A stretch of DNA of 64,000 bases from Candidatus Lindowbacteria bacterium RIFCSPLOWO2_12_FULL_62_27 (GTDB taxonomy: Bacteria > Lindowbacteria > 2-12-FULL-62-27), in contig MFPR01000028.1 in assembly GCA_001784175.1 (NCBI GenBank), positions 263,614 to 327,613 of the forward strand. Reading direction: 5' to 3'. The position numbers and the translations under genes were made by a program. The stretch's first letter is position 1; the number at the start of each line of letters is the position of its first letter. The notes beneath the pieces are model-generated. The model did not search any database. It had not been told where the DNA came from and saw nothing but the letters and a program-made list of their open reading frames with translations. This document shows, piece after piece, positions 14,798 to 58,193 of the stretch.

Positions 14798-15262
14798 CTA
14801 CTGCCGGAAGGCCATGCCCGGTTCTTCCTGGTGGGCAACGGCCGGGGCGGCTGCGAGTTCGGAGCGGATGCGGCGGCTCATCATGCGCAAAAGGCCCATG
14901 GAGATTTCCGGGTACTGCCCGAGGAGCGCCACGAACCGGTCGCGGTCGATCCTCAGAAACTTGCAGGGCGCCACCGCCTTGGCCGTGGCCGAGCGCGGTT
15001 CGTCATCGATGAGGGCCATTTCGCCGAAGGCCTCGAAGGTCGAGAGGGTCTTGACGGGCGTGCCGTCGGCGAGGACGATCTGGACGCCGCCTTCGATGAT
15101 CATGTACATGGAATCGCCGGGCTCGCCCTGATTGAAGACGATTTCTCCCTGATCCTCCTCCGTTTCCTCAACGATGTCGGCGATCAGCCGGAGTTCCTGG
15201 ATATTAAGCCCGGCGAAGAGGCTCACCTGTTTCAATAGTAAGATTCGTTCAAGGGTCAGCAT
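14798..15262 (-). CDS. cyclic nucleotide-binding domain protein (stand-alone cNMP effector domain, no HTH)
   Basis: IVFNQGEPGDSMYMIIEGGVQI..FGEMALIDDEPRSATAKA is the canonical cNMP-binding beta-roll/PBC. Confidence 0.85.
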   Translation of the reverse strand: MLTLERILLLKQVSLFAGLNIQELRLIADIVEETEEDQGEIVFNQGEPGDSMYMIIEGGVQIVLADGTPVKTLSTFEAFGEMALIDDEPRSATAKAVAPCKFLRIDRDRFVALLGQYPEISMGLLRMMSRRIRSELAAAPAVAHQEEPGMAFRQ

Positions 15263-18038
15263 GGGTTTTTAACCCCCCATCGGTTATTTGCACGGCCGCT
15301 GCGTGTTCGCGGACGAGCGCGGACGAGTGCGACCGCAGAGACGCGACGAGGTCGCGGCGGGCCGGGTCCGGGTTGTCCTTCCACACGTAGAGGATGGCCG
15401 AGATCATGTATTCGTAGGGCCGGGCGACGAGGTCCTCGAGGGTGCGGCCCACGTCAAAGTGGGCGTCCGGGACGTGCTTCAAAAACTCCCTGCGGGCCTC
15501 CACCATCGCGCCGTTCAGGACGGGCAGGAGGATGCCGGTCCAGGGTTTGAGGTCCCCCATATTTTCGAGCGCCTCCAGCGCGAGGGCGCGTTCGGCCGGC
15601 GCGCCGTGGACGGCGTTCCGGTAGACGCGCTGGAGGGTGAGCCGGTCGGAGAGAAATCCGAGCTCGATAAACACGAGCTTGCACGCGTCCCGCGCCTCCT
15701 GGTCGAACACGTAGTTCGTCACGTCGCGCGCGCGGTCGGTCCGGCAGAGTCCGAGAAGATGTTCGCGGAGGGTTTCGATTCGGATCCAGTGTTCGATCTC
15801 GCGTTTCAATATTCGGACCGCCTCCTCCGCCGGGAGCCTGCCGTCGATGCGCTGGGCGAGGGACACGACGCAGAGGTCGCGGATCGCAGGCTCGTCGGAA
15901 TGGATCTCCTGGAGCAGGAGGTCGGTCGGGTCCCATTTCGTATTTCGCGCGATGGCGGCGAGAAACCGGAGTTTGACGCGCCGGCGGCTCACCTCCTGCC
16001 GGTAGGCCAAAAGGATTGTGGTTCGGAGATGCTCGCCGCACGAGGCGAAATACCGCTGCACGTGTGGAAAGAGAATGTCGTCGCGGAGGGCGTCGACCAG
16101 CGCCGGGATGACGCGTTCGTCCTTGAAGGCCGTGAGGGAGCGGACGGCCGCCCGCGAGATTTTCGGATTGGCGTGTCGCGCCATCTCCAGGAGCGTGGGT
16201 AGAAAAGATTTGATGCGCAGCCGCCCGAGGATGGACGCGAGGAGTTCCAGCTCGCGGGGGTCCTCGCTTTTGGCCCAGCGCTTGAGCATCTCGGCAGTGG
16301 AAAGGATGCCGTCGAACCCGCCGATTTCCGCCTCGGTTTCGACCGCCTCCGCGACCACGCCGATGTCGGGATGCATGCGCAGAATTTCGAGCGCCATGAT
16401 CTGTTCCTCCGACCCGAGCCTCCGGAACCCCGCGAGCGCCTCGCGGACCACATCCGGGTGCGGATCGCCCAGGCGGTCCTCCAAGTGCGTCAGCATGTCG
16501 CGTCCGCCGATCTGCCCGATGGCGCGGCAGGCCATGCGCCGGACTTCGGGGTTGGCGTGTTCGAGGAGCGGCACACAGAGAGCAGCGGCGGGTTCGTATT
16601 TGATGAAAAGGAAATACTCGATCGCAAACGAGATGTCCTCCTGGTTGGCGGACTTGAGCCGCTGTTCCATTTCGCGGACCGTCGCCTCCGCGTTTTCGAT
16701 CGACAGCGCCGACAGGACGGGCACGCCGGCCTGCGGCGCGGCCTGGAGGTTGGAGACGACGGCCTTGAGATAATTCTTGCGGAGCAGGATCGTCGCGACG
16801 AACCAGACGGCGGCGAGTCCGAAGTTGCAAGCCGCGATCTGGGCCGGCTCCAGTTTCAATTCGACCAGCAGCAGCAAGGCCGCGCCGGCCAGACCCATCG
16901 AAAAGGGTTTGATGTAGCCTTCGACAAACGCCCGCGCCCGTCCGCGCTGAGCGGGCGGGATGGGGTTGAAGAGAAGCTGGTAGGCGACGTCGGTGGCCGT
17001 GTAGAGCAGCACATGATCGCCGAACTTGGTGACGCAGGCCGACGCGAACCCGAAGGAGACGATCATGCTGCCGATGGAGAAGAGGAGAAATGCGGGATGC
17101 AGCGTCATCGCCCCGGTCACACCGAGCTTGCGGATCGCCAGGGGCGTGAGGAATATCTGGAAGAGGAGGCAGCACGCGCCGGCCCAGCTTCGGAAAATTC
17201 CGAGGAAGGACGTCAGGGCGTCCTTGTCGGTCATGGCCACGCCGTTGACCTCCTTCGTGAAATTCGCGCGCGCGACTTGGCTGAACTGGTAGTCGATCAG
17301 GGTGAAGACGAGCCAGAGCGCAAGAATGAGGACGACCATGTTGACGAGGAGCGGCGTGCGCCGGACGTTCCGGAAGCCTTCGAGGAACTGCTGCCACTGG
17401 CTGAGCTTGGGCGCCTTGCGGGCCGCCTTGCCCGGCGGCGCCTTGGGGCGGTACCGCGCGAGGGCCGCGACGACGAGGAGTCCGGCGCCGAGGAGTACGG
17501 CCCACGCGATGAAGAGTTTTTCGGTGCCGAACGTTTTGACGAGCGGTTTGGCCACGAGCCCCGAGGTGATCATGCCGACGAGCCCGCCCATGCCGACGAG
17601 GGGAAAGATGCGTTTGGCCTGGACGGCGTCGAAGAAATCGGCGGCGAAGGTCCAGAACATCATGAGGGACATGAGCCACACCACCTGGATCAGCGAGTAG
17701 GTCGCCCAGTAAAACCACATCCATTCGGTCTTCAGGCCCAACACCACCGTGGCGAGCGTCGCGATGAACAGGATCAGGACCGCCCGCACGAATTTGAATC
17801 GGTCGAGCTTGTCGACAAACATCGCGTAGACCGCGGCTGACCCGATGGCGATGACGGCGTTGAGCATGTACGCGTAGGGCAGTGCGGCAAGGCCGACCTT
17901 GACGAGGAAGATCGAGTCGCGCGCGTTGCGTCCGAAGAAGATTCCGTTGACGAGGAGGAAGAAGAGGAGCGCGAGGAGGGACGTGCGCGCGAATTCGTCC
18001 TCGGAGAGTTTGAGTTTGGAGAGGAGGAAGGCTTTCAA
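15249..18038 (-). CDS. fusion protein: TLC (ATP/ADP translocase)-like/MFS-like transporter domain + C-terminal HEAT repeats
   Basis: 929 aa. N-terminus RTSLLALLFFLLVNGIFFGRNARDSIFLVKVG resembles the TLC-family signature, ~12 TM segments, C-terminal PBS-lyase/HEAT-like repeats (EVRRMACRAIGQIG.., PDVVREALAGFRRLG). Overlaps cNMP gene by 14 nt. Confidence 0.7.
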   Translation of the reverse strand: MKAFLLSKLKLSEDEFARTSLLALLFFLLVNGIFFGRNARDSIFLVKVGLAALPYAYMLNAVIAIGSAAVYAMFVDKLDRFKFVRAVLILFIATLATVVLGLKTEWMWFYWATYSLIQVVWLMSLMMFWTFAADFFDAVQAKRIFPLVGMGGLVGMITSGLVAKPLVKTFGTEKLFIAWAVLLGAGLLVVAALARYRPKAPPGKAARKAPKLSQWQQFLEGFRNVRRTPLLVNMVVLILALWLVFTLIDYQFSQVARANFTKEVNGVAMTDKDALTSFLGIFRSWAGACCLLFQIFLTPLAIRKLGVTGAMTLHPAFLLFSIGSMIVSFGFASACVTKFGDHVLLYTATDVAYQLLFNPIPPAQRGRARAFVEGYIKPFSMGLAGAALLLLVELKLEPAQIAACNFGLAAVWFVATILLRKNYLKAVVSNLQAAPQAGVPVLSALSIENAEATVREMEQRLKSANQEDISFAIEYFLFIKYEPAAALCVPLLEHANPEVRRMACRAIGQIGGRDMLTHLEDRLGDPHPDVVREALAGFRRLGSEEQIMALEILRMHPDIGVVAEAVETEAEIGGFDGILSTAEMLKRWAKSEDPRELELLASILGRLRIKSFLPTLLEMARHANPKISRAAVRSLTAFKDERVIPALVDALRDDILFPHVQRYFASCGEHLRTTILLAYRQEVSRRRVKLRFLAAIARNTKWDPTDLLLQEIHSDEPAIRDLCVVSLAQRIDGRLPAEEAVRILKREIEHWIRIETLREHLLGLCRTDRARDVTNYVFDQEARDACKLVFIELGFLSDRLTLQRVYRNAVHGAPAERALALEALENMGDLKPWTGILLPVLNGAMVEARREFLKHVPDAHFDVGRTLEDLVARPYEYMISAILYVWKDNPDPARRDLVASLRSHSSALVREHAAAVQITDGGLKTHADP

Positions 18039-42989: not shown

Positions 42990-45463
<2,474 letters not shown>

Positions 45464-45467
<4 letters not shown>

Positions 45468-45826
45468 GGCTCGGGCCCGTCCTGTTTGAACAGCCGCAAA
45501 ATGTCCTTCCCCTTCTGATTGACAAATTTTGAAATGGCGGAATGGATCGCGCCGTCGACGCTGTTGCCGACGCCCAACACCGGCAATCCCGTGTCGACCT
45601 CCAAGGATTCCCGGCGCTCAATCACCGCAATCTTGTTTTCACCCATAAATCGGATGAGAGATGATTTGAGGGACTCATAGCGCTCTGCCGGCTCGACGCC
45701 ATCGTCCACGATAAAAACAGACCCCTCATGCGACGCGTCCCAGATGCCCGCAACCGTTTTGCCGCGAAGTTCCTTGTTTTTTTCGCGCGCCTCCTCAATT
45801 TCGCTCCGAGGCAGGGACACCAGCAC
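45464..45826 (-). CDS. hypothetical protein
   Basis: 120-aa ORF, GTG start, no family recognised. Confidence 0.35.
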
Positions 45827-46179
45827 GTGTGACTGCCAGACTTATCCCACGGTCTTGCTTCCGGACTGTTTGGCGAATTTTTCCGTATACCAGTCGATGG
45901 CCATCATCCCGGCCAGAAACGCTCCGGACCTTAAAACGTGGATAAGTTAGCAGCCGAAGTTTGGCGAGGGGCAAATTTCGTCGACGGTGTTCAAATCAGA
46001 GAGCAAGAAAGGATCGCCGCTTGATCATGCGATCCACAACATTTGACAATATCTCGGTCGCCTCCGACACGACCCAATTTTGTTGCGGTCTTTTATTGAA
46101 CACACTGGACTTCCTTTCCCGGAATGGGAGCAGTGAAATTAAAAACACTGGAGTCAATAAGCACAAACAGGTCCAAATT

Positions 46180-46473
46180 CTATCTGGTTTTCCAGTAATC
46201 CGGATCGCGGCGCAGGTGCATGACGGCCATGACAATGACTTGGCGTGGTTTGTCTCTGAATAGGATGCCAAAGGGAAATGTCTTCGTGAGGCATCGGCGG
46301 ACGTCAATGTCTACGACAGGATATATTCGAGGATTGAGGAGGACACGATTGATGGTGTCCTGAACGGAAGCAAGAAAACGGTGACCGAGTCCCTCCTGCT
46401 GTGCCTCATAATACGCCGCCGCCGCCGCAATCATCTCGGCCGCCGCGTCAGGATGGAATTTGACCCTCTTCAC
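46180..46473 (-). CDS. type II toxin, RelE/ParE superfamily
   Basis: VKRVKFHPDAAAEM..YPVVDIDVRRCLTKTFPFGILFRDKPRQVIVMAVMHLRRDPDYW; GTG start overlapping antitoxin stop (GTGA). Confidence 0.7.
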   Translation of the reverse strand: MKRVKFHPDAAAEMIAAAAAYYEAQQEGLGHRFLASVQDTINRVLLNPRIYPVVDIDVRRCLTKTFPFGILFRDKPRQVIVMAVMHLRRDPDYWKTR

Positions 46474-46700
46474 GCAATAGCCGCACGTGCCCTGGCAAAA
46501 ACGGTGTTGGCATCGCGAAGTCTGACCATCCCCCGATCCAGTTGCGCGCAACGCCGGCGGATTTCCCGTTTCCACTTGGCTGATAATCTCGGAGACGTCG
46601 GCGCATCAAGACTCTCAATCAGTTTCTCCGCGACAAACGCCCGCAATGCCGGCGGAAGTTCCAGCGCCTCCGACACAACTTTCTCTGCTGTGCTTTTCAT
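46470..46700 (-). CDS. addiction-module antitoxin (TIGR02574-like)
   Basis: KVVSEALELPPALRAFVAEKLIESLD..RRCAQLDRGMV pattern of that family. Confidence 0.7.
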   Translation of the reverse strand: MKSTAEKVVSEALELPPALRAFVAEKLIESLDAPTSPRLSAKWKREIRRRCAQLDRGMVRLRDANTVFARARAAIA

Positions 46701-46834
46701 GCCACCATTATACTGATTTCGAACCGGATATCAACGGCGGCGGTCGCATGTTCATTCAATAAGTCTATAAGTCTATGTCCGGCACCCAAGGCCGGAAATT
46801 TGACAGAAATACAGATATATGGAAATCTGTATAC

Positions 46835-47095
46835 ATGAAAACCACCTTACAGTTGCCGGACGGGCTCTACCGGAGTCTCAAGGTGACGGCGGCGTCCGAG
46901 GGGCGGACGTTGACGGAGTTGATCCAGGAGTGTCTGAAGAAGGGGCTGGCCCTGATGCGGTCGACTTCAAAACGAAAACATGCGCCCTATCGCCTTCCGG
47001 TTATTCGCAGTAAACGGCCCGGCGCGTTAAATCTGACATCGGAGATGATGGACGCCCTTCTGTGGGACGATCCGGCCGGCGTGAAGCGCAGATGA
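46835..47095 (+). CDS. vapB: VapB-type antitoxin
   Basis: MKTTLQLPDGLYRSLKVTAASEGRTLTELIQECL; stop overlaps vapC start (ATGA). Confidence 0.7.
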   Translation: MKTTLQLPDGLYRSLKVTAASEGRTLTELIQECLKKGLALMRSTSKRKHAPYRLPVIRSKRPGALNLTSEMMDALLWDDPAGVKRR

Positions 47096-47523
47096 ATTTG
47101 CCGGACGCCAATGTCCTTCTGGCGATGTGCGCCGAGCGCCACGCCCACCATTCCGTTGCGGTGGAATGGCATCGTCTGGCGGCGGTTCGGGGAGAAGGGT
47201 GGGGCATGTGCCGGCTCACGACCTTGGCGCTTCTTCGAATGCTGACCAACCCGGCGATCATGGGTACCGATGTCCAGTCATCGGCGGCGGCCTGGAAATG
47301 CCTGGAGCAATTGGAGTCGGACCCGCTGTACCGTTTTCTTGAGGAGCCGGCCGGCTGTTGGCCGCTCTTTCAAAATCTGACGCGCACCGTGAAGGAGGGC
47401 CACCGCCATTGGACGGACGCCTATCTCGCCGCCCTCGCCGAATCCGCCGGCTGCCGTATCGTGACCTTCGACCGGAATTTCAGCGCCTGGCCCGGCGTGA
47501 CGTCTACGATTCTCAAGCCTTGA
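47092..47523 (+). CDS. vapC: PIN-domain VapC toxin
   Basis: MNLPDANVLLA..LTNP..WTDAYLAALAESAGCRIVTFDRNF. Confidence 0.8.
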   Translation: MNLPDANVLLAMCAERHAHHSVAVEWHRLAAVRGEGWGMCRLTTLALLRMLTNPAIMGTDVQSSAAAWKCLEQLESDPLYRFLEEPAGCWPLFQNLTRTVKEGHRHWTDAYLAALAESAGCRIVTFDRNFSAWPGVTSTILKP

Positions 47524-47535
47524 TTTATTTGTCCG

Positions 47536-48594
47536 CTATTCCGACCGGATCAGCGCCAGCATCAAAATAAAGTAGATCGTCATCAGTGCCAGGCCGATCG
47601 GCGCGGCGAACCTTGCCCATGCGCCGCTCTTGATGTCGAGTTTCGCCGCGCAGATGATGTTCGGGATATTGCCGGGGATCAGCATGCCGCCGGCGATCAG
47701 GAGGCCCATCAGCAGAAACTCGATGCGCGCCAGACTCATCTTCGGCGAGATTTCCGCCGCCGCCAGCGTTGCGTTGTCGAGTACGGCTGACACGCTGTTC
47801 ACCCAGTAGAGGGCGGATTTGGGCATCTCGATCAAGTAGCGGTCGGCGAACGGCTGGAAGCCGCTGCCGAGCAGGACGAGCGCCGCCACGAACACGTAGA
47901 CTTTCGCGGTCCGGCTCAGGACGTCGACCCATGTTTCCGGGCGGTCCTCTTCCAAGCCGCTCTCTGAGCTGCTGCCGGCCCGCCGGACGGCCCACACCGC
48001 CATCACGCCCAGCGACAGGATCCCGCCGATGACCCACGGCCACAGCATCCGGAACAGAAAAAAGAAACCGGCATGATGGGGTTCGCCCGACAGCTTCGCG
48101 GTCGCGATCGTCGACAGCGGCTCGCCGATCGGCGTGAGGGCCGCACCGAGGCCGATCGAATAGCAGGAGAGGATGACGACGCGCCGTTCCCGGTCCTTGT
48201 CCCACTGCAGGCCCGAGATGATCTCCGCCAGCGTGAGCGCCGCCATGATGGCGGTGATCACGCTCGACAGAAGGCCGAGGCCGACCACCAGCGCAAAAAC
48301 GAACCCGGCCGGGCCAAGCCGCCGCACCCATTGATTCACATGGTCATGGATGGCCGCGCGGGTGAGCCGGAAGATAATCCCGAAAACGAAAACGGCCGCC
48401 GTGATCTTGAGCGGCTCCGTCAGCGCCTCTCCAATCAGATGCCGGCTCCAGAGGCCGCTGATCGTCACGGCCGCCGTGCCCATGACGAGCAAAAACGCCT
48501 CCAGCTCCTCCTCGATCCGGCGGACCGTGAACGGCAGGACCAGGACGAGCGACATGACGGCGCCAAGGCCGATCAGCACATGGATGTGTTCCAT
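47536..48594 (-). CDS. polytopic membrane protein, putative cation transporter (recalled as DUF1646-like)
   Basis: 10-11 TM segments; family assignment from memory only. Confidence 0.5.
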   Translation of the reverse strand: MEHIHVLIGLGAVMSLVLVLPFTVRRIEEELEAFLLVMGTAAVTISGLWSRHLIGEALTEPLKITAAVFVFGIIFRLTRAAIHDHVNQWVRRLGPAGFVFALVVGLGLLSSVITAIMAALTLAEIISGLQWDKDRERRVVILSCYSIGLGAALTPIGEPLSTIATAKLSGEPHHAGFFFLFRMLWPWVIGGILSLGVMAVWAVRRAGSSSESGLEEDRPETWVDVLSRTAKVYVFVAALVLLGSGFQPFADRYLIEMPKSALYWVNSVSAVLDNATLAAAEISPKMSLARIEFLLMGLLIAGGMLIPGNIPNIICAAKLDIKSGAWARFAAPIGLALMTIYFILMLALIRSE

Positions 48595-48625
48595 TCTTTG
48601 GCCCCCCGTGGCCGGATTGGTTCGG

Positions 48626-48970
48626 TTACTTGGTCTGTTCGGCTGGAATGTCGGGCAGGGCGAAGGGCACGGACTTGCGAAGGCGCGTCATGTAAATGAG
48701 GCCGCCGCCCGGCCGGTCGATGTTCGCGGTTTCGTGCATGAGATCAAAGAGTTCTTCGGATTCCTCGCCCTTCACGGTCACCGTCACGATTTCCTTCTCC
48801 ACTTGTTCGGGTGATCCGCTCTTGCCGGTGGGATCGCCATAATCCGAACCCCGCGAGAAGCAAAGGTTGGTCGTGGTCACGCCCCGCTTGTGGATGGCCT
48901 CCAGAAGCGGCAAGCCGGCGCCTTTCGGCAGGATGCAGGTAATGAGTTTGCTGCCGGAATCCGCCTGCAT
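48626..48970 (-). CDS. PII-like (GlnB-superfamily) signalling protein
   Basis: KLITCILPKGAGLPLLEAIHKRGVTTTNL..GGLIYMTRL ferredoxin-like PII layout; GGGGAGG RBS. Confidence 0.7.
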   Translation of the reverse strand: MQADSGSKLITCILPKGAGLPLLEAIHKRGVTTTNLCFSRGSDYGDPTGKSGSPEQVEKEIVTVTVKGEESEELFDLMHETANIDRPGGGLIYMTRLRKSVPFALPDIPAEQTK

Positions 48971-48985
48971 GGTCGAATGCCTCCC

Positions 48986-49357
48986 CTACGCCTTGTGCGC
49001 CTTGGAAAGTTTTTCGATCAGGAACTGCGGGATGTAGGTCGCCGCCTTTTCAAGCTCGGTCATATAGATGAATCCCATGCCGGGCGTGTCGAGATTTCCC
49101 GCGAGAAACATCGCCTCGAAAATCCGGTCGGCGTCGTCCGAGCCCACGACGATGTTGATGATTTCCTTTTCCGCCTCCACCGCCACGCCGAGGATTCCAA
49201 GCCGCTCCCGAATGCCCGTGCCGCGCGCGAAAAACACCGTCGCGGCCTGCGCCCCGGCCTCCGTCGCCGCCTTCACGATCTTGTCCGCCACCCCGCGCTG
49301 GACGATGCACGTGATCAGCGTCACGTCGGTCAGCACGGTAATCTGTCGCTTGGTCAT
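48986..49357 (-). CDS. PII-like (GlnB-superfamily) signalling protein, second paralogue
   Basis: In-frame ATG (MTKRQITVLTDVTLITCIVQRGVADKIVKAATEAG) with GGGAGGAG RBS, overlapping upstream gene stop (ATGA). 105-aa N-terminal part of ORF 48986..49672 rejected. Confidence 0.7.
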   Translation of the reverse strand: MTKRQITVLTDVTLITCIVQRGVADKIVKAATEAGAQAATVFFARGTGIRERLGILGVAVEAEKEIINIVVGSDDADRIFEAMFLAGNLDTPGMGFIYMTELEKAATYIPQFLIEKLSKAHKA

Positions 49358-51132
49358 GCCACAGCTCCTCCCGCCGCCACCTGCGCTGCCTGCGCGGCCT
49401 TTTGTCGGTTTGTCCGCCATTGAACAAACAATCCCACCGCCAGCACCGAAATGATCGGACACACCGACGCCATCGCCAGAATGCCGAATCCTTCCGCGGC
49501 GCTGACCGCGTTGCCGAATCCCAATCCCATGGCGAGCACCAGGGGAACCGTCACGGGTCCCGTCGTCACGCCGGCGCTGTCCCAGCCGATGTTCACGTAT
49601 TCTTCCGAAGAGAAATGCGTCATGATCAGCAGCGGGATGTACGACCCGATCAGCATCCATGCCAGCGGCCAATTGTACAGAATCTTCAGTATGCCGATGG
49701 AAATGCCGGCGGCCACCCCGACCGCAACAGAGTACATGAGCGCCGATTTTTTAAATGCTCCGTTTGAAAGATTCTCGACCGTGAGGCCGAGGGCGTTCAG
49801 GGCCGGTTCCGCCAGCGTCGCGCCAAAGCCCAGCGCGTAGGCGAAAATCATCGCCAAGAGGACGCCGACGAAATAGGCATACAGCGGCGAGGATGGAATG
49901 GTGTCGAGCCGCATGAACGCGGCCGGAACGATCTGTCCCGACTGGTCGCCCAGCTTGGCGAGACCGTAGGTTAATCCGATATTGAAGAGAATCATCCCGA
50001 TGATGGACAGCGTGATGCCGTACGTCAGAATTCCGGTATTTCGGATTTTTTCCCGCAGGACGAAAATCAACACCATGAACAGAAACGCGATGAGCGGCAG
50101 GATGGCTCGAAGGGACATGACAATCTCAAGCCCCGGGCTGGCCTGGTACCAGGTCGGCTCGCCTGAGGCCGCCGCCGCTTCGGCGGCCGCTTTCGCGCTC
50201 GCCAGAATGGTCTCGGTCGGAACAGTGAGGTAGATGAAAATACCGAGCCCCAATACCATCAGGATCGGAAAAACGGATGCCAGCGTCACGATGCCGAATC
50301 CCGACAGGCTCCCGCCGCCCTTGCCGACGGCCGTCGCCACGCCGATGCCCAGCGCCAGCACCACCGGCACGGTGACCGGCCCGGTGGTCACGCCGCCGCA
50401 GTCCCAAGCCAGGCCGATGACGGCGCGCAAATTAGGATTGTAATTGCAGTAGGCGGTGACCGCCATGGTCGGGATCAGGGAGGAGTAGATCAGAGGTTTT
50501 AGACTCCAGCCATAGACGAATCTCAAGGTTCCCAGCGTTGCGGCGATGCCCACTCCGATCCCGACCATGACGACGGTCCACTGCGCGTAGGTGTTCAAGA
50601 GCGCATACAAAATGGGAGCGCTCTCCGGTTTGACCAGTCTCCCCGCGTACTGCAGGGCGCCGATGGCGGGTTCGGCGTAGGTGACGAGCACGCCGAGAAC
50701 AAACGCGATCAAGAGAACGACCGGCAGCGGCCGCTTGGTCGGCAGCATGTTCCCGATGACTTCGGCGAACGGCATGATCCCGAGTTTCAGGCCTTCCATG
50801 TAAAACATCAGCCCGAGGATGACCGCAAGAAGCCCGCCATTGATGACGTAGGGGTCGGCGACACCCTGCCGCAGAATGATCAACTGAAAGAGCACGAGGT
50901 ACACGCCCAGCGGCACCACAGCGCGCAACTGCTCCGCGAGCCGCGGCGTCACGTACGGCTTGAGTATCCGCGCCGTCTCCTTCGGCGTCACCTTCAGTTT
51001 CGCGGGCTTGTAGGGAATGGGCTTCCCGTCCGGCCCCTTCTGGATTTTGGGCATGAGAAGATTGTAGCTGAGCTGACTCTGCTGAACGGAGACTTCCCGT
51101 GCAAATTCTCCGAATCGAACTGCCTTTTCCAT
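49354..51132 (-). CDS. membrane protein with two homologous halves (recalled as 2x DUF1538)
   Basis: repeated motif WDCGGVTTGPVTVPVVLALGIG / WDSAGVTTGPVTVPLVLAMGLG; ~16 TM segments. Confidence 0.6.
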   Translation of the reverse strand: MEKAVRFGEFAREVSVQQSQLSYNLLMPKIQKGPDGKPIPYKPAKLKVTPKETARILKPYVTPRLAEQLRAVVPLGVYLVLFQLIILRQGVADPYVINGGLLAVILGLMFYMEGLKLGIMPFAEVIGNMLPTKRPLPVVLLIAFVLGVLVTYAEPAIGALQYAGRLVKPESAPILYALLNTYAQWTVVMVGIGVGIAATLGTLRFVYGWSLKPLIYSSLIPTMAVTAYCNYNPNLRAVIGLAWDCGGVTTGPVTVPVVLALGIGVATAVGKGGGSLSGFGIVTLASVFPILMVLGLGIFIYLTVPTETILASAKAAAEAAAASGEPTWYQASPGLEIVMSLRAILPLIAFLFMVLIFVLREKIRNTGILTYGITLSIIGMILFNIGLTYGLAKLGDQSGQIVPAAFMRLDTIPSSPLYAYFVGVLLAMIFAYALGFGATLAEPALNALGLTVENLSNGAFKKSALMYSVAVGVAAGISIGILKILYNWPLAWMLIGSYIPLLIMTHFSSEEYVNIGWDSAGVTTGPVTVPLVLAMGLGFGNAVSAAEGFGILAMASVCPIISVLAVGLFVQWRTNRQKAAQAAQVAAGGAVA

Positions 51133-51223
51133 CTTTTACACTTTCACCTGACCGGTCGTGGGCGCGCGCATGGCTGAGTAAAATCGTTACTATGCAGGCG
51201 CCGTGTTTGCAAGACCGCGATGA

Positions 51224-52267
51224 CTATTTGGCGGCGGCCTGATGAAGTACCCGCTGCGGAAACGGGATCTCGATCCCCTCGCGCCCGAAGCGCTCATGGA
51301 CGCGCTTGATGAATTCGTGCGTCGCCAGGTGCTGGTCCTCGAATGCCATCACCCGGAGCAGGATCATGAAATCGACGGATGACTCGCCGAAGGCCTGATA
51401 CCGCAGAATCGGTTCGAAGCCCGGGATCGCGCCCGGAACCTCCCTCTGCACGCCCGCCGCCACCTCCAGCGCCACGCGCTCGACGCGGGACAGATCGCTC
51501 GCGTACGAAACGCCGAGCCGCACGGGAACGGAAAACTCGCGTCGCGGGAGATTCAGATTCGTCACCACCGCCTGCGCGATTTTGGTGTTTGGGATCAGGA
51601 TGAAATTGTCCGCCCGGTCGCAGATCGTGGTCGACCGCCAGCCGATGTCCCTCACGAATCCCTCCGCGCCGCTGTCGAGTTTGATGTAATCCCCCAGGCG
51701 GATCTGGCGGTTGACGATGATGTAGATGCCCGAAAACAGATTTGACAGCGTGTCCTGCAGCGCCAGCGCGACGGCCAGGGAGCCGACGCCGAGCGCCGTG
51801 AGGAGCGGCGCGATCGAGATGTCGAGGTTGGCGAGGATGAGCAGGAGGCCCATCCCGTAGATGACGAGCCGCGTCAGGTTTTCGAGGAGCGTGGTCGTGC
51901 CGAGCGCCAGCCGCGTCGCGACGGAGTGGATCCACACGACGGCGATCCGGGCGATGGCCAGCGACACCGAGAGGACAAACAGGACCATCAGCAGGTGGTC
52001 GATGTGCCGGATCCAGAGCGGATGCAGGCCGCGCAGCGGCGACAGCCGCAGGCCGACGACGATGCCGGCCAGCGTGAACCAGAACGGAATGTGCCGCCGG
52101 CCGGCCGCGTACAGCACCTCTTTCATCTGCGGCTCGACTTTCTCGAAAAACCGCGCGAGGGGCCGAAGCAGAACGGCCGGCGCCAGAAATCCGGCGATGG
52201 CGGCGGCCAAAAAGATCAGAATGGGTTTGAGCCACGGTCCGGCCCATGCAAGCATTGGGATGTCCAT
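51224..52267 (-). CDS. mscS: small-conductance mechanosensitive channel (MscS family)
   Basis: 3 TM + conserved DTLSNLFSGIYIIVNRQIRLGDYIKL beta-domain. Confidence 0.85.
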   Translation of the reverse strand: MDIPMLAWAGPWLKPILIFLAAAIAGFLAPAVLLRPLARFFEKVEPQMKEVLYAAGRRHIPFWFTLAGIVVGLRLSPLRGLHPLWIRHIDHLLMVLFVLSVSLAIARIAVVWIHSVATRLALGTTTLLENLTRLVIYGMGLLLILANLDISIAPLLTALGVGSLAVALALQDTLSNLFSGIYIIVNRQIRLGDYIKLDSGAEGFVRDIGWRSTTICDRADNFILIPNTKIAQAVVTNLNLPRREFSVPVRLGVSYASDLSRVERVALEVAAGVQREVPGAIPGFEPILRYQAFGESSVDFMILLRVMAFEDQHLATHEFIKRVHERFGREGIEIPFPQRVLHQAAAK

Positions 52268-52310
52268 TGATTATTATTTCGTCACAAACGGGCGGAATCT
52301 TGTTGAAAAT

Positions 52311-53108
52311 TTACCGGCGGCGCCGTCTCCAGCGGGCGATCAGCCTCCTCAGAAACTCGGTCACCTCCGACGGATCCTTCAGCCGATAATTCCCGCCGGC
52401 CGGCCGGTGTCCGACGGCGATGCCGGCGCCCCGGCCGCGCACGGCGCGCAGGAGATCCGCGTCCGTGCGGTCGTCGCCGATCGCGATGCAGAAGTCGCGT
52501 TCCACCGGCCGCTCCCCGCAGAGCGCCGTCACGGCGAGTCCCTTGTGGGCTGCGACGGCCTTTGCCTCGATCGCGCCTTTCCCCCGCATCACCCGCAAGA
52601 CGCCCTTGTCTACGGGGGGCCGCAGCAGGCTCAGGAAATGCCGGCACACGGCCCGGCGCCGGCCGGGGGCGGCTCGCCGGTAGTGGAGGGACACGGCGAA
52701 TTTCTTGTCTTCGACGGAAAACGTTTCGTCCGCGACGCCTCGCATGCCTGCGAGAATCCTGCGGACGGCAGGCCGCGCTTCGGGCGCGTCGATCAGAAGC
52801 CGCACGCGGCCCATTCCCCGCGCGCACTCGGCGCCGTGCGTTCCGACGTACCACGCCCGCCGAAGCGGCATAAGGCTGCGCATGCCGCGAATCGACCGCC
52901 CCGTCACGATCGCCAGGGTGACGCCGCGCGTGCGAGCGATTCGGCGCATCAGCGCCACCAGCGCGCGTCCGGGCACGGCGTCTTCCGGCCGGGGCGCGAT
53001 GGGCTTGAGCGTGCCATCGTAGTCGAGAAACAGCACGAGCCTTCGGGCGCGCGCCATCCGCCCGGCGATGTCGCGCAGAATTTTTGCGGGTGTCGTAAAG
53101 CGCATCAT
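52311..53108 (-). CDS. otsB: trehalose-6-phosphate phosphatase (HAD-IIB)
   Basis: LFLDYDGTLKPIA motif I and overall OtsB layout. Confidence 0.75.
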   Translation of the reverse strand: MMRFTTPAKILRDIAGRMARARRLVLFLDYDGTLKPIAPRPEDAVPGRALVALMRRIARTRGVTLAIVTGRSIRGMRSLMPLRRAWYVGTHGAECARGMGRVRLLIDAPEARPAVRRILAGMRGVADETFSVEDKKFAVSLHYRRAAPGRRRAVCRHFLSLLRPPVDKGVLRVMRGKGAIEAKAVAAHKGLAVTALCGERPVERDFCIAIGDDRTDADLLRAVRGRGAGIAVGHRPAGGNYRLKDPSEVTEFLRRLIARWRRRRR

Positions 53109-53192
53109 CTGCGCGTTGTACCTGTTCGAGCCGGCCTGTCAAGCCGACGGATTGATCGACCTCCTTCGCGATGGTAATAAGATGAAGGAAAT

Positions 53193-53265
53193 GGTGGCTA
53201 TAGCTCAGCGGCAGAGCACCTGACTGTGGCTCAGGGGGTCGCGGGTTCAAATCCCGTTAGCCACC
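53193..53265 (+). tRNA. tRNA-His (anticodon GTG) with encoded G-1
   Basis: hand-folded cloverleaf: g-1 + gtggcta acceptor / tagccac + C73; anticodon loop ctGTGgc; T-loop ttcaaat; upstream TTGATC-N17-TAATAA promoter-like. Confidence 0.8.
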
Positions 53266-53324
53266 CATCTATTTGCCAACCGCGCGTTCCCATCGTCGAT
53301 GTTTCAGGATAAGCTCATCTCACC

Positions 53325-55589
53325 ATGCGCATCAGCCTTCGTCTGATTGTCTCTTTGGTGGTCGCCGTGTCCGTGGTGGCCTGTTTCTTCGCGTATGTCC
53401 AGGTCGGCCAGGAGAAGGAGCGGCACAGCGACGAACTGGACCGCCGGTCCCGGCTCCTGGCGGAAAGTCTTCAGGAAACGATTGGCCCGCTGATCGAGAA
53501 GGGACCGTCCGGCGATTTGGAACGGCTCGTGGAGAAATATGGAAACCGTGAACGGCTGGCCGGAGTGGCGGTCTACGACGCCAGGGAAAGTCCCCTCGCC
53601 GTCACGGCCAGCCTGTCCGCCGCCCTGCCCACGCCTCTGCCGATGGTGGGCGAGGCGATGCGGGGCGACGTCGATGTCGGCCGGTTTGAGACATTCGGCG
53701 GGAGGGAAATGCACGTCTATGCCATGCCCCTTCGGATTGGAGAAAGTATCGCGGGCTGCCTCCTGATCTTTCATGACGCGACGTTCATCCGGATTCAACT
53801 GTCCCGAATCTGGCGCCAGACATTTCAGCGGTTGCTGGTGCAGATGGTGCTGATCGCGATCGTGACCTTGCTGATCGTCCGCTGGAGCATCGCAGGACCG
53901 ATCGCGCGGATGGCGGACTGGATGAAAAATCTCCGCGCCGGAGACGTCGGCGAGCCGTTTTCGGCGCCCAAGGAAGACCTGTTTTCACCCATCGCCAAGG
54001 AAGCCTCCCGCTTCGCCCTGCATCTGACGATTGCGAAGCAGGCCGCGGAGGATGAGGCGCGGCTTCGTCAGGAGGCGTCGACCCTCTGGACGCCCGATCG
54101 GTTGAGAGAACATGTCCGGTCGAAATTGCAGGGCAGCCCCCTGTGTGTGGTTTCCAATCGCGAGCCTTACATGCACATTCGGCGCGGCCGCAAAGTCGAG
54201 TGCATTGTTCCCGCCGGCGGACTCGTGACCGCCTTGGAGCCTGTCCTGCGATCCTGCAGCGGCACCTGGATCGCCCATGGTTCCGGCGACGCCGACTGGG
54301 AAGGCTTGGACGAAAAAAATCGCATCAAGGTTCCGCCCGATGATCCGCTCTACACGCTGAAACGGGTGGCGCTCACCAAAGAGGAGGAGAACGGATATTA
54401 CTACGGGTTTGCCAACGAGGGACTCTGGCCGCTCTGTCATATCGCGCATACCCGGCCGGTCTTCCGGGCAGAGGACTGGGCGTATTACCAGAAAGCCAAC
54501 CGGAAATTCGCCGCCGCAGTACTGGAGGAACTGAAGGACGTGGCGTCGCCCTGCGTTTTGATCCAAGATTATCATTTCGCCCTCCTGCCCCGGATGATCA
54601 AGGACGAACGGCCGGACGCGCGCATCGCGCTCTTCTGGCACATCCCCTGGACCAACCCCGAGGCGTTCGGCATCTGCCCCTGGCAGAGGGAGCTTCTCTA
54701 CGGAATGCTGGGTGCGGATTTGATCGGCTACCACACGCAGTTCCACTGCAATAATTTCCTGGACACGGTCGACCGCGCGCTCGAATCCCGCATCGATTGG
54801 GAGCGATTCGCCGTCAAGAAAGAAGGCCATACCACCCTCGTCAAACCGTTTCCCATCAGCGTCGCCTTCCCGGAAACGTTTCAGGACACCGCCGGCGCGG
54901 ACCTGGTGGACCGCGACGCCCTTTTGAAGGAACACGGGATCAGGGCCAAGTATCTGGGGATCGGCGTTGAGCGGATGGATTACACCAAGGGCGTGCTGGA
55001 GCGGTTCCGGGCGATCGAGCGCTTTTTGGAAAAAAATCCCGCCTACCAGGGCGAGTTTGTCTTCGTCCAGATCGGCGCGCCCAGCCGCACGCACATCAAG
55101 CGGTACCAGGACTTTCTGTCGGAAGTGGAGTCCGAGGCCGACCGGATCAACTGGAGGTTTCCGCCCAAGGATTACAAACCCATTGTTTTTCTAAAGAAGC
55201 ACCACAGCCATCAGGAGATTTTGCCCTTTTACAAAGCAGCCGACCTCTGCATGGTCACGTCGCTTCATGACGGCATGAACCTCGTCGCCAAGGAATTCGT
55301 GGCGGCCCGGGATGATCAGAACGGCGCGCTGATTCTAAGCCGTTTCACAGGCGCCTCCCGGGAACTTCGCGACGCGCTCATCGTCAATCCCTACGATATC
55401 GAACAAATGGCCGAGTCCATCCGCTACGCGCTGGAGATGGATCCTGAAGAGCGGTCCGCGCGGATGGGCCGGATGCGAGAAACGGTTCGGGAACACAACG
55501 TCTACCGCTGGGCCGGCAATCTCGTCGAAGAGCTCACCAAAATCCGAATTGACGAACGGCCGGCTCCCGCCGGCGTAGGCACAAATTAG
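53325..55589 (+). CDS. otsA: trehalose-6-phosphate synthase (GT20) fused to N-terminal TM-periplasmic-TM sensor-like module
   Basis: C-terminal 480 aa has GT20 motifs (GFANEGLWPLCHI, LIQDYHFALLP, VTSLHDGMNLVAKEF). N-terminal 270 aa: TM1 (LIVSLVVAVSVVACFFAYV), ~150-aa extracytoplasmic region, TM2 (LLVQMVLIAIVTLLIV) then amphipathic HAMP-like linker. Confidence 0.8.
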   Translation: MRISLRLIVSLVVAVSVVACFFAYVQVGQEKERHSDELDRRSRLLAESLQETIGPLIEKGPSGDLERLVEKYGNRERLAGVAVYDARESPLAVTASLSAALPTPLPMVGEAMRGDVDVGRFETFGGREMHVYAMPLRIGESIAGCLLIFHDATFIRIQLSRIWRQTFQRLLVQMVLIAIVTLLIVRWSIAGPIARMADWMKNLRAGDVGEPFSAPKEDLFSPIAKEASRFALHLTIAKQAAEDEARLRQEASTLWTPDRLREHVRSKLQGSPLCVVSNREPYMHIRRGRKVECIVPAGGLVTALEPVLRSCSGTWIAHGSGDADWEGLDEKNRIKVPPDDPLYTLKRVALTKEEENGYYYGFANEGLWPLCHIAHTRPVFRAEDWAYYQKANRKFAAAVLEELKDVASPCVLIQDYHFALLPRMIKDERPDARIALFWHIPWTNPEAFGICPWQRELLYGMLGADLIGYHTQFHCNNFLDTVDRALESRIDWERFAVKKEGHTTLVKPFPISVAFPETFQDTAGADLVDRDALLKEHGIRAKYLGIGVERMDYTKGVLERFRAIERFLEKNPAYQGEFVFVQIGAPSRTHIKRYQDFLSEVESEADRINWRFPPKDYKPIVFLKKHHSHQEILPFYKAADLCMVTSLHDGMNLVAKEFVAARDDQNGALILSRFTGASRELRDALIVNPYDIEQMAESIRYALEMDPEERSARMGRMRETVREHNVYRWAGNLVEELTKIRIDERPAPAGVGTN

Positions 55590-56248: not shown

Positions 56249-57466
56249 TTATAAATAGACGACATCTTTGCCCGGATGATCGAGCGACAGAAACAGCATC
56301 AGGTACTCGCGCAGGTGGCGGGTCAGAAGGAAATTATCGCGGACGTGTTCCCGGCCGTTTTCGCCGAGTTTGCGGGCGAAGTCCGGGGACTGCAGGAGCT
56401 GTTTGAGCCAGTAGGCCGTGCCTTCGACGGAATGCGTAAGAATGCCGGAATGTTTGTGCGTGATCTGAAGCGGGATCCCGCCGACCGCGCCCGCGATGAC
56501 CGGTTTGCCTTTCCACAGCGCCTCCGAGACTGTGAGGCCAAACCCTTCCCGGATCGATTTTTGAACGATGATGTCGGACGCCCGCTGGATCGCGTTGATC
56601 TCGACGTGGCTGGTGGGGGGAAGACAGAGGATGAGAATGTCCGGATCGTCCGCCGCGCGGTCTCTCACTTCCGCAAGAACCTTCGCGCCCTCGGGATCGT
56701 CGTCCGCCGATCCGCCGACGAGCAAAAGCCGGCAGTCGATCCGTTCTCTCACCATGCGAAACGCCTCGATGACGCCGACCGGGTCTTTGAGGTAATCAAA
56801 CCGGGAGACCTGCGTGATGAGGGGTCTGTCCCGGGGGATCTGGAGACGGTCGCAGATGGCGGCAACTTCCTCTTGCGTCAAGTCCCTGTTCTTGTCGCTC
56901 AAGGGATCGATGGACGGCGAGATGAGCACCTGTTGGATGCTGAGGACCTGCGAAAAAGCCGGCGCCGAAAAAACGCTTGCGTCGTAGCGTTCCACGACCG
57001 GTTTCAGGGCATTCCAAACCGCCAAATCGGGCGAGGAGAGATCAATGTGGCATCGCCATATCCACCGGCCCTTGCCCGGGGTTTTTTTCACGATCAACCC
57101 GGCTGGCTGGGGATCGTGGATGAAGAGGATATCGGCGTTCAAATCCATTTGAGCGGCGTTCAGTTCCTGAGTCTGCCAGTACAGGTCCCAGTCCGACGGC
57201 GAGAATTCCTGCGTTGCGCCATGCAGGGCGTTGTGGATTTTTTTGGTAACGGCATAAAACTGTTCCCCGCCTTTGATGACATCCCACCGGGCGTCGACTC
57301 CCAGTTCCTTGCACAGCGGCACCATCCGGTTCAAAATTTCGGCGACCCCGCCTCCGACAGCGGTGGAGTTGACGTTCCGGACCACCCGGCCGGCAAGTTT
57401 TTTCGCGATCAGCCGCAGATCGTCGATGACGCCGGCGCCGACGATGGGGGCGTATTGCTCAAGCAT
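56249..57466 (-). CDS. treT: trehalose glycosyltransferring synthase-like GT4 glycosyltransferase
   Basis: VNSTAVGGGVAEIL, WRCHIDLSSP, SPSIDPLSDKN, ITQVSRFD, SIREGFGLTVSEALWKGKPVIAGAVGGI match the TreT pattern as recalled. Confidence 0.7.
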   Translation of the reverse strand: MLEQYAPIVGAGVIDDLRLIAKKLAGRVVRNVNSTAVGGGVAEILNRMVPLCKELGVDARWDVIKGGEQFYAVTKKIHNALHGATQEFSPSDWDLYWQTQELNAAQMDLNADILFIHDPQPAGLIVKKTPGKGRWIWRCHIDLSSPDLAVWNALKPVVERYDASVFSAPAFSQVLSIQQVLISPSIDPLSDKNRDLTQEEVAAICDRLQIPRDRPLITQVSRFDYLKDPVGVIEAFRMVRERIDCRLLLVGGSADDDPEGAKVLAEVRDRAADDPDILILCLPPTSHVEINAIQRASDIIVQKSIREGFGLTVSEALWKGKPVIAGAVGGIPLQITHKHSGILTHSVEGTAYWLKQLLQSPDFARKLGENGREHVRDNFLLTRHLREYLMLFLSLDHPGKDVVYL

Positions 57467-58193
57467 GGTGGGACTCCGCGGATTCGATCATCCGATTTTC
57501 CGCCAGCGTGATGAGGCGCGATCGCAGACCCTCGAGTGTGCAGGTATACGGATCGAGCTGGGCGATTTCGACGGCCAGCACCATTTCCCCAAGTTCCTCT
57601 TCCAGCCAGCGGGAAAAATCATTGACGCCGTGCTCCAGGCGGAGCCGGGCCTCGAAGACGTGGTGATAAATCGAGTGGACGGAGACTTTCCGGAGCGCCT
57701 CAGAGAATTCCCGAAGATCTCCGGCCTGATAGGGAGTGGGCAAAATAAAGCTCACCGATTTCATGAAATGGAACTCCATCCCCTCCGGCGCGTCCGCCGC
57801 CGTCTTCCGTTTCGCCATCCGGTCTTCGATGATGGCGACAATTTTTTCGCGCAGTTCCCGAAGGGTTTTGAAATTGACGGTGTCGACCGCCGCGAGCCGT
57901 TCCGCCAGCCTGGCGTCCTGCATCGCCTCCGCCGCCCACCAGGCGAAATCGTTCGGCGGCTCGGGCGAGAGATACTGATGTTGTTTGAGGAACCGGTGCG
58001 TGTGGTGATAAATCACCGAGCCGGGAACCGCCTTCAGGATGTCGGCCATCTCCCTGAGATTTCGCGCCCGGAGTCCCGTCAGTTCCGTCAGGTCGACGTG
58101 GGTGAAAAATCGGAATGAATGTTTGGCCCGTGGAAGATGGGATTGATCCATTTGCGGGCAGACTATCACCGGTCGGCGCGACGATCCAGCCAC
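57459..58193 (-). CDS. hypothetical protein with internal tandem duplication, co-transcribed with treT
   Basis: two ~100-aa repeats each with S(V/I)xYHH..NDF(A/S)xW..ENRM; 8-nt overlap with treT start. Confidence 0.5.
   Translation of the reverse strand: MAGSSRRPVIVCPQMDQSHLPRAKHSFRFFTHVDLTELTGLRARNLREMADILKAVPGSVIYHHTHRFLKQHQYLSPEPPNDFAWWAAEAMQDARLAERLAAVDTVNFKTLRELREKIVAIIEDRMAKRKTAADAPEGMEFHFMKSVSFILPTPYQAGDLREFSEALRKVSVHSIYHHVFEARLRLEHGVNDFSRWLEEELGEMVLAVEIAQLDPYTCTLEGLRSRLITLAENRMIESAESHHA

Follow-up and report, generated by a model that had tools for sequence, protein, structure and literature searches.

Pairing of DUF1538 transporters with PII-like proteins points to a widespread, apparently undescribed switch on ion transport

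Few signal processors in biology are as widespread as PII proteins, and only a handful of classes of their direct targets are understood. A 64,000-nucleotide stretch of the genome of Candidatus Lindowbacteria bacterium RIFCSPLOWO2_12_FULL_62_27 (contig MFPR01000028.1; the whole stretch is here called the window) raises the question of what two adjacent PII-like proteins regulate when their genes lie between those of a duplicated DUF1538 membrane protein and a DUF1646 permease. An original prediction, made from the sequence alone, had described these four genes as an uncharacterised, translationally coupled module. The survey presented here points to the pairing of DUF1538 with PII as a widespread and apparently undescribed switch on ion transport. 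The four genes, with lengths in amino acids (aa), are as follows.

49354-51132, minus strand: fused double-DUF1538 membrane protein, the transporter core (592 aa; Pfam PF07556)
48986-49357, minus strand: PII-1, the conserved PII-like subunit (123 aa; Pfam PF00543)
48626-48970, minus strand: PII-2, a fast-evolving PII-like paralogue (114 aa; assigned by profile and by AlphaFold/Foldseek)
47536-48594, minus strand: DUF1646 permease, ion-transporter-superfamily-like (352 aa; Pfam PF07854)

The DUF1538-PII unit and its distribution

Linkage between DUF1538 and PII genes held at almost every locus sampled. A genome sample of 80 loci was collected with a profile of fused DUF1538 proteins, and at every one, as far as the contig reached, the duplicated DUF1538 gene preceded PII-1, with PII-2 next; 74 of the loci were complete trios. 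The hosts were Nitrospinota, Gamma-, Alpha-, Beta- and Zetaproteobacteria, Bdellovibrionia, Planctomycetota, Chitinispirillaceae, Thermoanaerobaculia and others. The DUF1538/PII-1 junction was a four-nucleotide (nt) overlap in 49 of the trios, and the gap between the two PII genes had a median of 5.5 nt. An independent metagenome sample, also of 80 loci, was seeded with split-type DUF1538 and left 75 loci with room after the transporter gene; a PII gene lay directly downstream in 74 of these distant, mostly split or shorter fused members, locus L108 being the only one truly without it. The script itself had counted 67/75, and seven of its eight "no PII" flags were reversed by hand, a PII open reading frame being present and overlapping. 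Both samples are best-scoring matches and not random draws.

The PII partner takes several forms, namely a single gene, two genes, a double fusion or a triple fusion. Split DUF1538 pairs are mostly followed by one PII of about 113 aa, and the fused proteins of about 510-530 aa, many of them on human-gut metagenome contigs, by a double PII of about 224-234 aa. Four plasmid-borne DUF1538 genes are each followed by a gene annotated as "P-II family nitrogen regulator": those of Methylocystis and Chelativorans are split pairs with a single PII, and those of Peptoclostridium and Vescimonas are shorter fused genes with a double PII of 222-224 aa. No further conserved neighbour recurred in the 80 genome loci or in the metagenome loci, and DUF1538 and PII thus form a self-contained module of a constancy comparable to that of amtB-glnK. 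The original prediction had taken AmtB-GlnK and SbtA-SbtB as models of a ligand-gated transport system. The PII proteins are dedicated partners of a membrane transporter, and this frame is supported.

All four open reading frames were found at the places and in the order first reported for 47536-51132. The ATG of PII-1 overlaps the DUF1538 stop codon as ATGA (4 nt), and the next two junctions are gaps of 15 nt (PII-1/PII-2) and 31 nt (PII-2/DUF1646), both with Shine-Dalgarno-like sequences (GGGAGG/GGGGGG). Because these junctions are gaps, only the DUF1538/PII-1 pair is coupled by overlap, and the claim that all four genes are translationally coupled goes too far.

The fourth gene does not share the conservation of the other three. 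DUF1646 is joined to the trio only in L001-L003, the nearest relatives of the window, and the four-gene order is repeated in L001 and L002. It was absent from all 80 genome loci with the trio, as well as from L089-L091, whose DUF1538 proteins are 73-75% identical to that of the window, and from the more distant L092-L094, all of which keep the trio. The conserved unit therefore consists of three genes. DUF1646 is ruled out as part of it and was gained by the operon recently, in this lineage. The supposition that the four genes are co-conserved, with a PII pair bracketed by two membrane proteins, thus failed the neighbourhood check for the fourth gene.

The DUF1538 protein matched PF07556 at 347.9 bits (cutoff 22.6; E 2e-104) over two stretches, and the DUF1646 protein matched PF07854 at 362 bits (cutoff 21.4; E 5e-108), so that both family numbers of the original prediction proved correct. 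The two halves of the DUF1538 protein (residues 68-300 and 340-570) share 31% identity (E 5e-31) and represent an internal repeat, each holding an AEPA..AL motif and a WDxxGVTTGPVTVP motif. The latter had been described as a duplicated WDxGGVTTGPVTVP; two copies are indeed present, WDCGGVTTGPVTVP and WDSAGVTTGPVTVP, the second of which reads WDxAG instead of WDxGG. One Glu (in AEPA) and one Asp (in xDxGG) per repeat are invariant throughout the family, as would be expected of a cation site. Orthologues from different phyla are 55-60% identical. The start at 51132, which gives 592 aa, is backed by N-terminal residues conserved in homologues; a public gene call for the identical sequence has 566 aa (96% of the query) and so a later start. 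The DUF1646 protein has at least nine hydrophobic segments by a crude hydropathy scan, and also gave weak matches to CitMHS (32.8 bits) and NhaB.

Two minor observations concern the neighbours of the trio. In L001, the region directly upstream of the operon formed by the trio and DUF1646 (L001 3-2027) holds another fused DUF1538 gene, which is more divergent and has a single PII gene to itself; two PII-linked DUF1538 systems therefore stand there in tandem. A protein of about 243 aa without a Pfam match (MN/SE...KNRRRIFDA...) is encoded directly downstream of PII-2, on the same strand, in L027, L041, L049, L078 and L083; its cluster covers seven loci, with informative titles of Burkholderiales, Oxalobacteraceae, Betaproteobacteria and "Bordetella", and it may be a clade-specific fourth component.

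Two PII paralogues and their assembly

PII-1 matched the Pfam P-II family (PF00543) at 33.8 bits (cutoff 25), and is 70-86% identical to sampled homologues of other phyla. Its AlphaFold model (pLDDT 81.1) gave top Foldseek matches in the PDB that were all PII/GlnK, with probability 1.00. PII-2 had no Pfam match. An exhaustive search for its family gave 980 cluster representatives (E<=1e-3), and a profile of 111 relatives drawn from them matched solved PII proteins (E 1.8e-6) and, by hhalign, the PII-1 profile (probability 99.8, 28% identity). The AlphaFold model of PII-2 (pLDDT 93.9) matched GlnK/PII in Foldseek with probability 1.00 and TM scores of 0.64-0.74. Both models show the double beta-alpha-beta fold, and structure prediction together with the Pfam and profile matches confirms that the two small proteins are PII-like, with the ferredoxin-like fold of that family. 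PII-1 and PII-2 are, by profile comparison, paralogues.

Residues were compared with E. coli GlnB and with DUF1538-linked PII proteins of other phyla. Relative to GlnB, the T-loop of the DUF1538-linked clade is five residues shorter and carries no Tyr51-type modification site; the clade retains the RGxG base of the T-loop, the EKE lysine (equivalent to K58) and G87/G89. K90 is replaced by F in PII-1 and by L in PII-2 (F, L or I in the clade), and R101/R103 of the C-terminal RxR are gone. Since the canonical ATP-phosphate residues are lost and G87/G89 and K58 are kept, the nucleotide pocket is partly kept, without its triphosphate ligands. The window proteins lack the features that define canonical GlnB/GlnK, namely a full T-loop, a Tyr51/Ser49 site and K90/R101/R103. 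Nor do they join the PstA/DarA proteins, PstA chains having matched the PII-2 profile at an E value of only 0.72.

The two paralogues have diverged at different rates. Mean pairwise identity over the 74 trios was 0.62 for the transporter, 0.58 for PII-1 and 0.34 for PII-2. In the T-loop of PII-1 (ARGxGxRERLGxLG), most positions show conservation of at least 90%; the T-loop of PII-2 varies except for RG. Fusions indicate how such subunits could be combined. In L089 the partners are PII-1 and a 243-aa fusion of two PII-2 domains, three domains in total, and seven cluster representatives of 357-400 aa (P0293, P0298, P0343, P0367-P0369 and P0387) have three PII domains in a single chain, the middle domain being the most similar to PII-1. 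The gene for P0293, the representative whose contigs were looked up, lies directly after a DUF1538 gene and overlaps its end (L088 4093-7128). Judged by their domain content, the triple chains are natural "single-chain PII trimers", and they lend indirect support to a trimeric PII assembly. The simplest reading of these architectures would be one PII trimer per transporter, with one conserved and two degenerate subunits. One T-loop could be enough because the target is a single chain of pseudo-two-fold symmetry, unlike the homotrimers AmtB and SbtA.

A precedent exists in the 2:1 PII heterotrimer made from two genes that has been described for NifI1/NifI2 (bioRxiv 10.1101/2025.09.09.675011). 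As in the DUF1538-linked trio, the NifI paralogues are encoded in tandem and one subunit type is more conserved. In contrast to the trio, the NifI proteins keep the canonical ADP/ATP/2-oxoglutarate residues, and their target is the nitrogenase NifDK and not, as proposed here, a membrane transporter; the stoichiometry suggested here, one conserved subunit to two divergent ones, is also the opposite. PDB entry 9p1x, which holds two PII chains, was considered as a transporter complex and rejected, being the nitrogenase-NifI1/NifI2 complex.

These features raise the possibility, which we place a little below an even chance, that DUF1538 represents a third widespread class of PII-gated transporter beside AmtB-GlnK and SbtA-SbtB, controlled by an asymmetric trimer whose only functional T-loop lies on the conserved subunit, with the two degenerate subunits as scaffolds. 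The trimer would be built from two genes, from 1+2 fusions or as a triple chain, and would be the second heteromeric PII complex known and the first acting on a transporter. Its ligand may be a cyclic nucleotide or a nucleotide mono- or diphosphate, rather than ATP and 2-oxoglutarate.

Cation exchange and its alternatives

The substrate had been considered unknown and the genes uncharacterised, a view that published work on both membrane-protein families corrects. UmpAB of Halomonas zhaodongensis, a heterodimer of DUF1538 proteins, rescues E. coli KNabc and catalyses Na+(Li+,K+)/H+ antiport in everted vesicles (PMC5484666); the cloned fragment contained ORF1-ORF4, umpB being ORF4. The window protein belongs to the same Pfam family, and its two homologous halves form a pseudo-heterodimer resembling the UmpA-UmpB heterodimer, with best NCBIfam matches to UmpA for the N-terminal half (216.9 bits) and to UmpB for the C-terminal half (185.6 bits). 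Unlike the two subunits of UmpAB, these halves are fused in one 592-aa chain, and the cassette includes two PII genes, whereas no PII partner is mentioned for UmpAB (PMC5484666). DUF1646 genes are a main target of the Na+-I riboswitch and are predicted to encode Na+/H+ antiporters (PMC9337991). The fourth gene of the window is a clear member of that family, and differs from the riboswitch-controlled genes in being appended to a PII-containing operon without a Na+-I riboswitch (DUF1646-motif RNA): Rfam gave no match to it in the window at the gathering score, nor at E<=5 in 47000-53400.

Genes for ion homeostasis were also found next to the trio elsewhere. CPA-type Na+/H+ exchangers occur in the flanks of 10 of the 80 genome loci; in nine of these the exchanger is the next called gene, at 0-906 nt. 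Eight of them (L004, L013, L015, L016, L021, L023, L029 and L056) form one cluster of about 690-850 aa from several phyla. Pfam scans of four members showed, in three, a C-terminal domain that binds cyclic nucleotide monophosphates (cNMP). The frequency of exchangers is several-fold above our own rough expectation, four of the loci being Nitrospinota and non-independent. Also encoded near the trio are a KefB-like exchanger, a Na/Pi cotransporter, Ion_trans (voltage-gated) channels and MscS, whose gene in L048 precedes the trio by 19 nt. Class III cyclases adjoin the trio in L009 and form a further cluster of four loci, of which the scanned member (L042) encodes a CHASE2-cyclase within a few kilobases. 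Together, the cNMP-binding exchangers and the cyclases are hints of cNMP control of ion homeostasis and of a possible PII ligand.

We favour, with moderate confidence, the reading of the DUF1538 protein as a cation/proton antiporter gated by a dedicated PII complex that is probably heteromeric; DUF1646 would be a second exporter, specific to this lineage. Antiport is preferred because the relationship to UmpAB, the invariant Glu and Asp, the ion-homeostasis neighbours, the island that surrounds the cassette in the window and the Na+ link of DUF1646 are taken together. In the proposed mechanism, the three-gene cassette would encode an internally duplicated, single-chain secondary transporter and two PII paralogues serving as its dedicated cytoplasmic regulator. 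The transporter would most likely swap monovalent cations (Na+, perhaps Li+ or K+) for protons, as does the split UmpAB. PII-1 and PII-2 would probably form one asymmetric trimer of one PII-1-type and two PII-2-type subunits, and we infer that the short, conserved T-loop of PII-1 docks on the cytoplasmic face of the transporter. A small-molecule ligand at the PII subunit interfaces, probably an adenine nucleotide or a cyclic nucleotide rather than MgATP and 2-oxoglutarate, would decide whether transport is opened or blocked. The Lindowbacteria cassette has gained DUF1646 as a putative second Na+ exporter. It would belong to an island for salt and osmotic stress, whose other genes are otsB, mscS, otsA, treT and that of a pyrophosphatase, probably proton-pumping, which could supply the proton gradient. 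The earlier suggestion of a ligand-gated transport system thus survives in its PII-transporter frame and not in its bracketed four-gene layout, which is not conserved.

Several observations weigh against this reading. The antiport evidence comes from one study on a distant, split homologue (PMC5484666). The scores of the window protein fall far below the equivalog cutoffs of UmpA and UmpB (NF041627 and NF041628; 490 and 500 bits), and by these matches it is a relative of UmpAB and no orthologue or equivalog. No solved structure was found for DUF1538 or DUF1646, the 1:2 stoichiometry derives from the fusions only, and both PII proteins lack the ATP-phosphate ligands K90, R101 and R103 and have the shorter T-loop noted above. 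Rfam searches of the window and of 19 other loci gave tRNAs and nothing else, with no riboswitch or other cis-acting RNA upstream of the operon or of the DUF1538 genes of those loci. Many of the hosts belong to marine chemolithoautotrophic taxa, a pattern that would also suit the import of a nutrient with Na+, and the exchangers beside the trio could just as well sustain the Na+ cycle of a symporter.

The last two points belong to an account, fairly unlikely in our estimation, by which DUF1538 imports a nutrient or an anion such as bicarbonate, coupled to Na+ or H+, and is gated by PII according to carbon or energy status as in SbtA-SbtB, with the exchangers and DUF1646 recycling Na+. PII-type proteins classically gate uptake, as in AmtB-GlnK and SbtA-SbtB, the adjoining exchangers fit a Na+ cycle, and autotrophs among the hosts include Nitrospina, Mariprofundaceae, Hydrogenovibrio halophilus, Thiotrichaceae, Chromatiaceae, Magnetococcales and a sulfur-oxidising symbiont. 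However, hosts of the trio also include heterotrophs and predators (Halieaceae, Planktomarina, Bdellovibrionia, Chitinispirillaceae), members of the wider family are frequent on human-gut metagenome contigs and on Clostridia plasmids, and no RuBisCO, carboxysome or carbonic-anhydrase family recurs near the trio in the 80 loci, among which a link to carbon concentration was rejected for want of any recurrent neighbour of that mechanism. The only experimental datum for the family is, moreover, cation/H+ antiport (PMC5484666). The annotations of the small proteins, "P-II family nitrogen regulator" or "nitrogen regulatory protein P-II", would make them ordinary nitrogen regulators of the GlnB/GlnK kind that merely lie beside transporters. 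We give this virtually no credence: the T-loop is short, the Tyr51-type site and K90/R101/R103 are missing when compared with E. coli GlnB, the linkage to DUF1538 is invariant in more than 150 loci, and no amtB, glnA or nif family recurs beside the trio in the 80 loci or was seen among the scanned genes around the cassette, the scan of the window being non-exhaustive for these. The canonical nitrogen-regulator reading was accordingly rejected on residues and genomic context.

It is quite unlikely, in our view, that DUF1538 moves K+ or an osmolyte-related ion for the control of turgor rather than for Na+ extrusion, with the PII-like proteins as receptors of cyclic di-AMP (c-di-AMP) or cyclic AMP in the manner of PstA/DarA and SbtB. 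UmpAB did move K+ too (PMC5484666), the window has an mscS and trehalose gene context, cNMP-binding exchangers and class III cyclases (L009 and the L042 cluster) lie near the trio, and the triphosphate-binding residues are lost in PII-1 and PII-2. This account suffers from the poor match of PstA to the PII-2 profile, and from the fact that cyclase and GGDEF genes are common, so that their adjacency is weak evidence. Use of c-di-AMP is not known in most of the proteobacterial hosts. That all four genes make one machine, in which the PII pair bridges or regulates both DUF1538 and DUF1646, is very unlikely. The tight packing in the window (-4, 15 and 31 nt) and the same gene order in L001 and L002 would suit such a machine, but DUF1646 is missing from every trio locus of the genome sample and from the closest DUF1538 homologues. 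Elsewhere it is found under Na+-I riboswitches, in an account that mentions neither PII nor DUF1538 with them (PMC9337991).

Viewed as a PII-gated cation/proton antiporter, the DUF1538 system resembles AmtB-GlnK and SbtA-SbtB in having a PII gene immediately downstream of the transporter gene, often overlapping it, in a linkage that crosses phyla, and in the predicted ligand-controlled docking of a T-loop on the cytoplasmic face. It differs from them in that DUF1538 is of an unrelated family and is a single pseudo-two-fold chain, not a homotrimer; two PII paralogues, or double and triple fusions, likewise take the place of the PII homotrimer, with a shorter T-loop and canonical ATP/2-oxoglutarate residues partly lost. 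From SbtA-SbtB it is further set apart by its DUF1538 partner without recurrent carbon-concentrating genes. The proposed coupling of cation/H+ exchange to a cytoplasmic nucleotide sensor recalls KefC-KTN and the NhaP-type cNMP exchangers, and exchangers of such kind adjoin the trio in several loci; unlike in those proteins, the sensor here would be a separate PII-fold oligomer and not a fused KTN/RCK or cNMP domain.

No link between DUF1538, PF07556 or UmpAB and PII was found in the literature searched, and a search for "PII-like" with "antiporter" showed no DUF1538-PII link among the matches listed. The gating of an adjacent transporter by PII is already known; the DUF1538 transporter family with its short-T-loop PII clade, and the heteromeric and fused architectures, appear undescribed. 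The pairing, held in more than 150 sampled loci from gut Firmicutes to marine Nitrospinota, gives the DUF1538 family a testable regulatory mechanism and corrects thousands of "nitrogen regulator" annotations. The natural single-chain and heteromeric variants offer a means to study how a three-fold sensor couples to a transporter of two-fold pseudo-symmetry. If the substrate is Na+, the pairing would add an extra layer of post-translational control to bacterial salt and pH homeostasis.

Genes around the cassette

The cassette lies in a one-strand string of genes in the order otsB, mscS, duplicated DUF1538, PII-1, PII-2 and DUF1646. Its surroundings in the window are the following.

52311-53108, minus strand: trehalose-phosphatase, OtsB-like (Pfam Trehalose_PPase, E 2e-31), 43 nt upstream of mscS
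51224-52267, minus strand: MscS-type mechanosensitive channel (Pfam MS_channel_1st/2nd/3rd), 91 nt upstream of DUF1538
53325-55589, plus strand: trehalose-6-phosphate synthase-like GT20 protein, OtsA-like (Glyco_transf_20, E 9e-120, residues 274-738), divergent from otsB-mscS-DUF1538
42990-45467, plus strand: membrane pyrophosphatase (Pfam H_PPase, E 9e-177), convergent with the operon
46775-47523, plus strand: RHH antitoxin and PIN toxin
46180-46700, minus strand: ParE toxin and antitoxin
45464-45826: open reading frame of 120 aa without a Pfam match

The four genes of the cassette are tightly packed and probably co-transcribed, and mscS is possibly on the same transcript. A sigma-70 promoter scan of the region gave two promoter-like sites, neither placed to drive the operon (1.3 expected by chance), and a terminator scan of the region gave nothing informative for it. 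The pyrophosphatase of the window carries a GNTFKA motif, which we take to suggest the K+-independent, H+-pumping type. A convergent pyrophosphatase gene also follows directly after DUF1646 in L001 and L002. The two genes are only 6 nt apart in L001, and in the window about 2 kb of small genes (45464-47523) lie between them, with a guanine-cytosine content of 0.577, among the lowest in the window; toxin-antitoxin cassettes look to have been inserted there.

Upstream of the cassette, about 270 N-terminal residues of the OtsA-like protein form an extension that begins hydrophobic and matches no Pfam family. Genes for a TreT-type trehalose synthase and for a DUF5752 protein lie nearby (56249-58193), and with the OtsA/OtsB-type genes the region so encodes two trehalose routes. 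A tRNA-His gene (GTG anticodon) lies at 53194-53266, between the divergent otsB and otsA-like genes. Farther away, a very large open reading frame of more than 3520 aa (1-10563) runs off the 5' end of the window, and a 929-aa protein of unusual architecture (15249-18038) has HEAT repeats besides a membrane region of weak MFS likeness, with an open reading frame of 154 aa after it.

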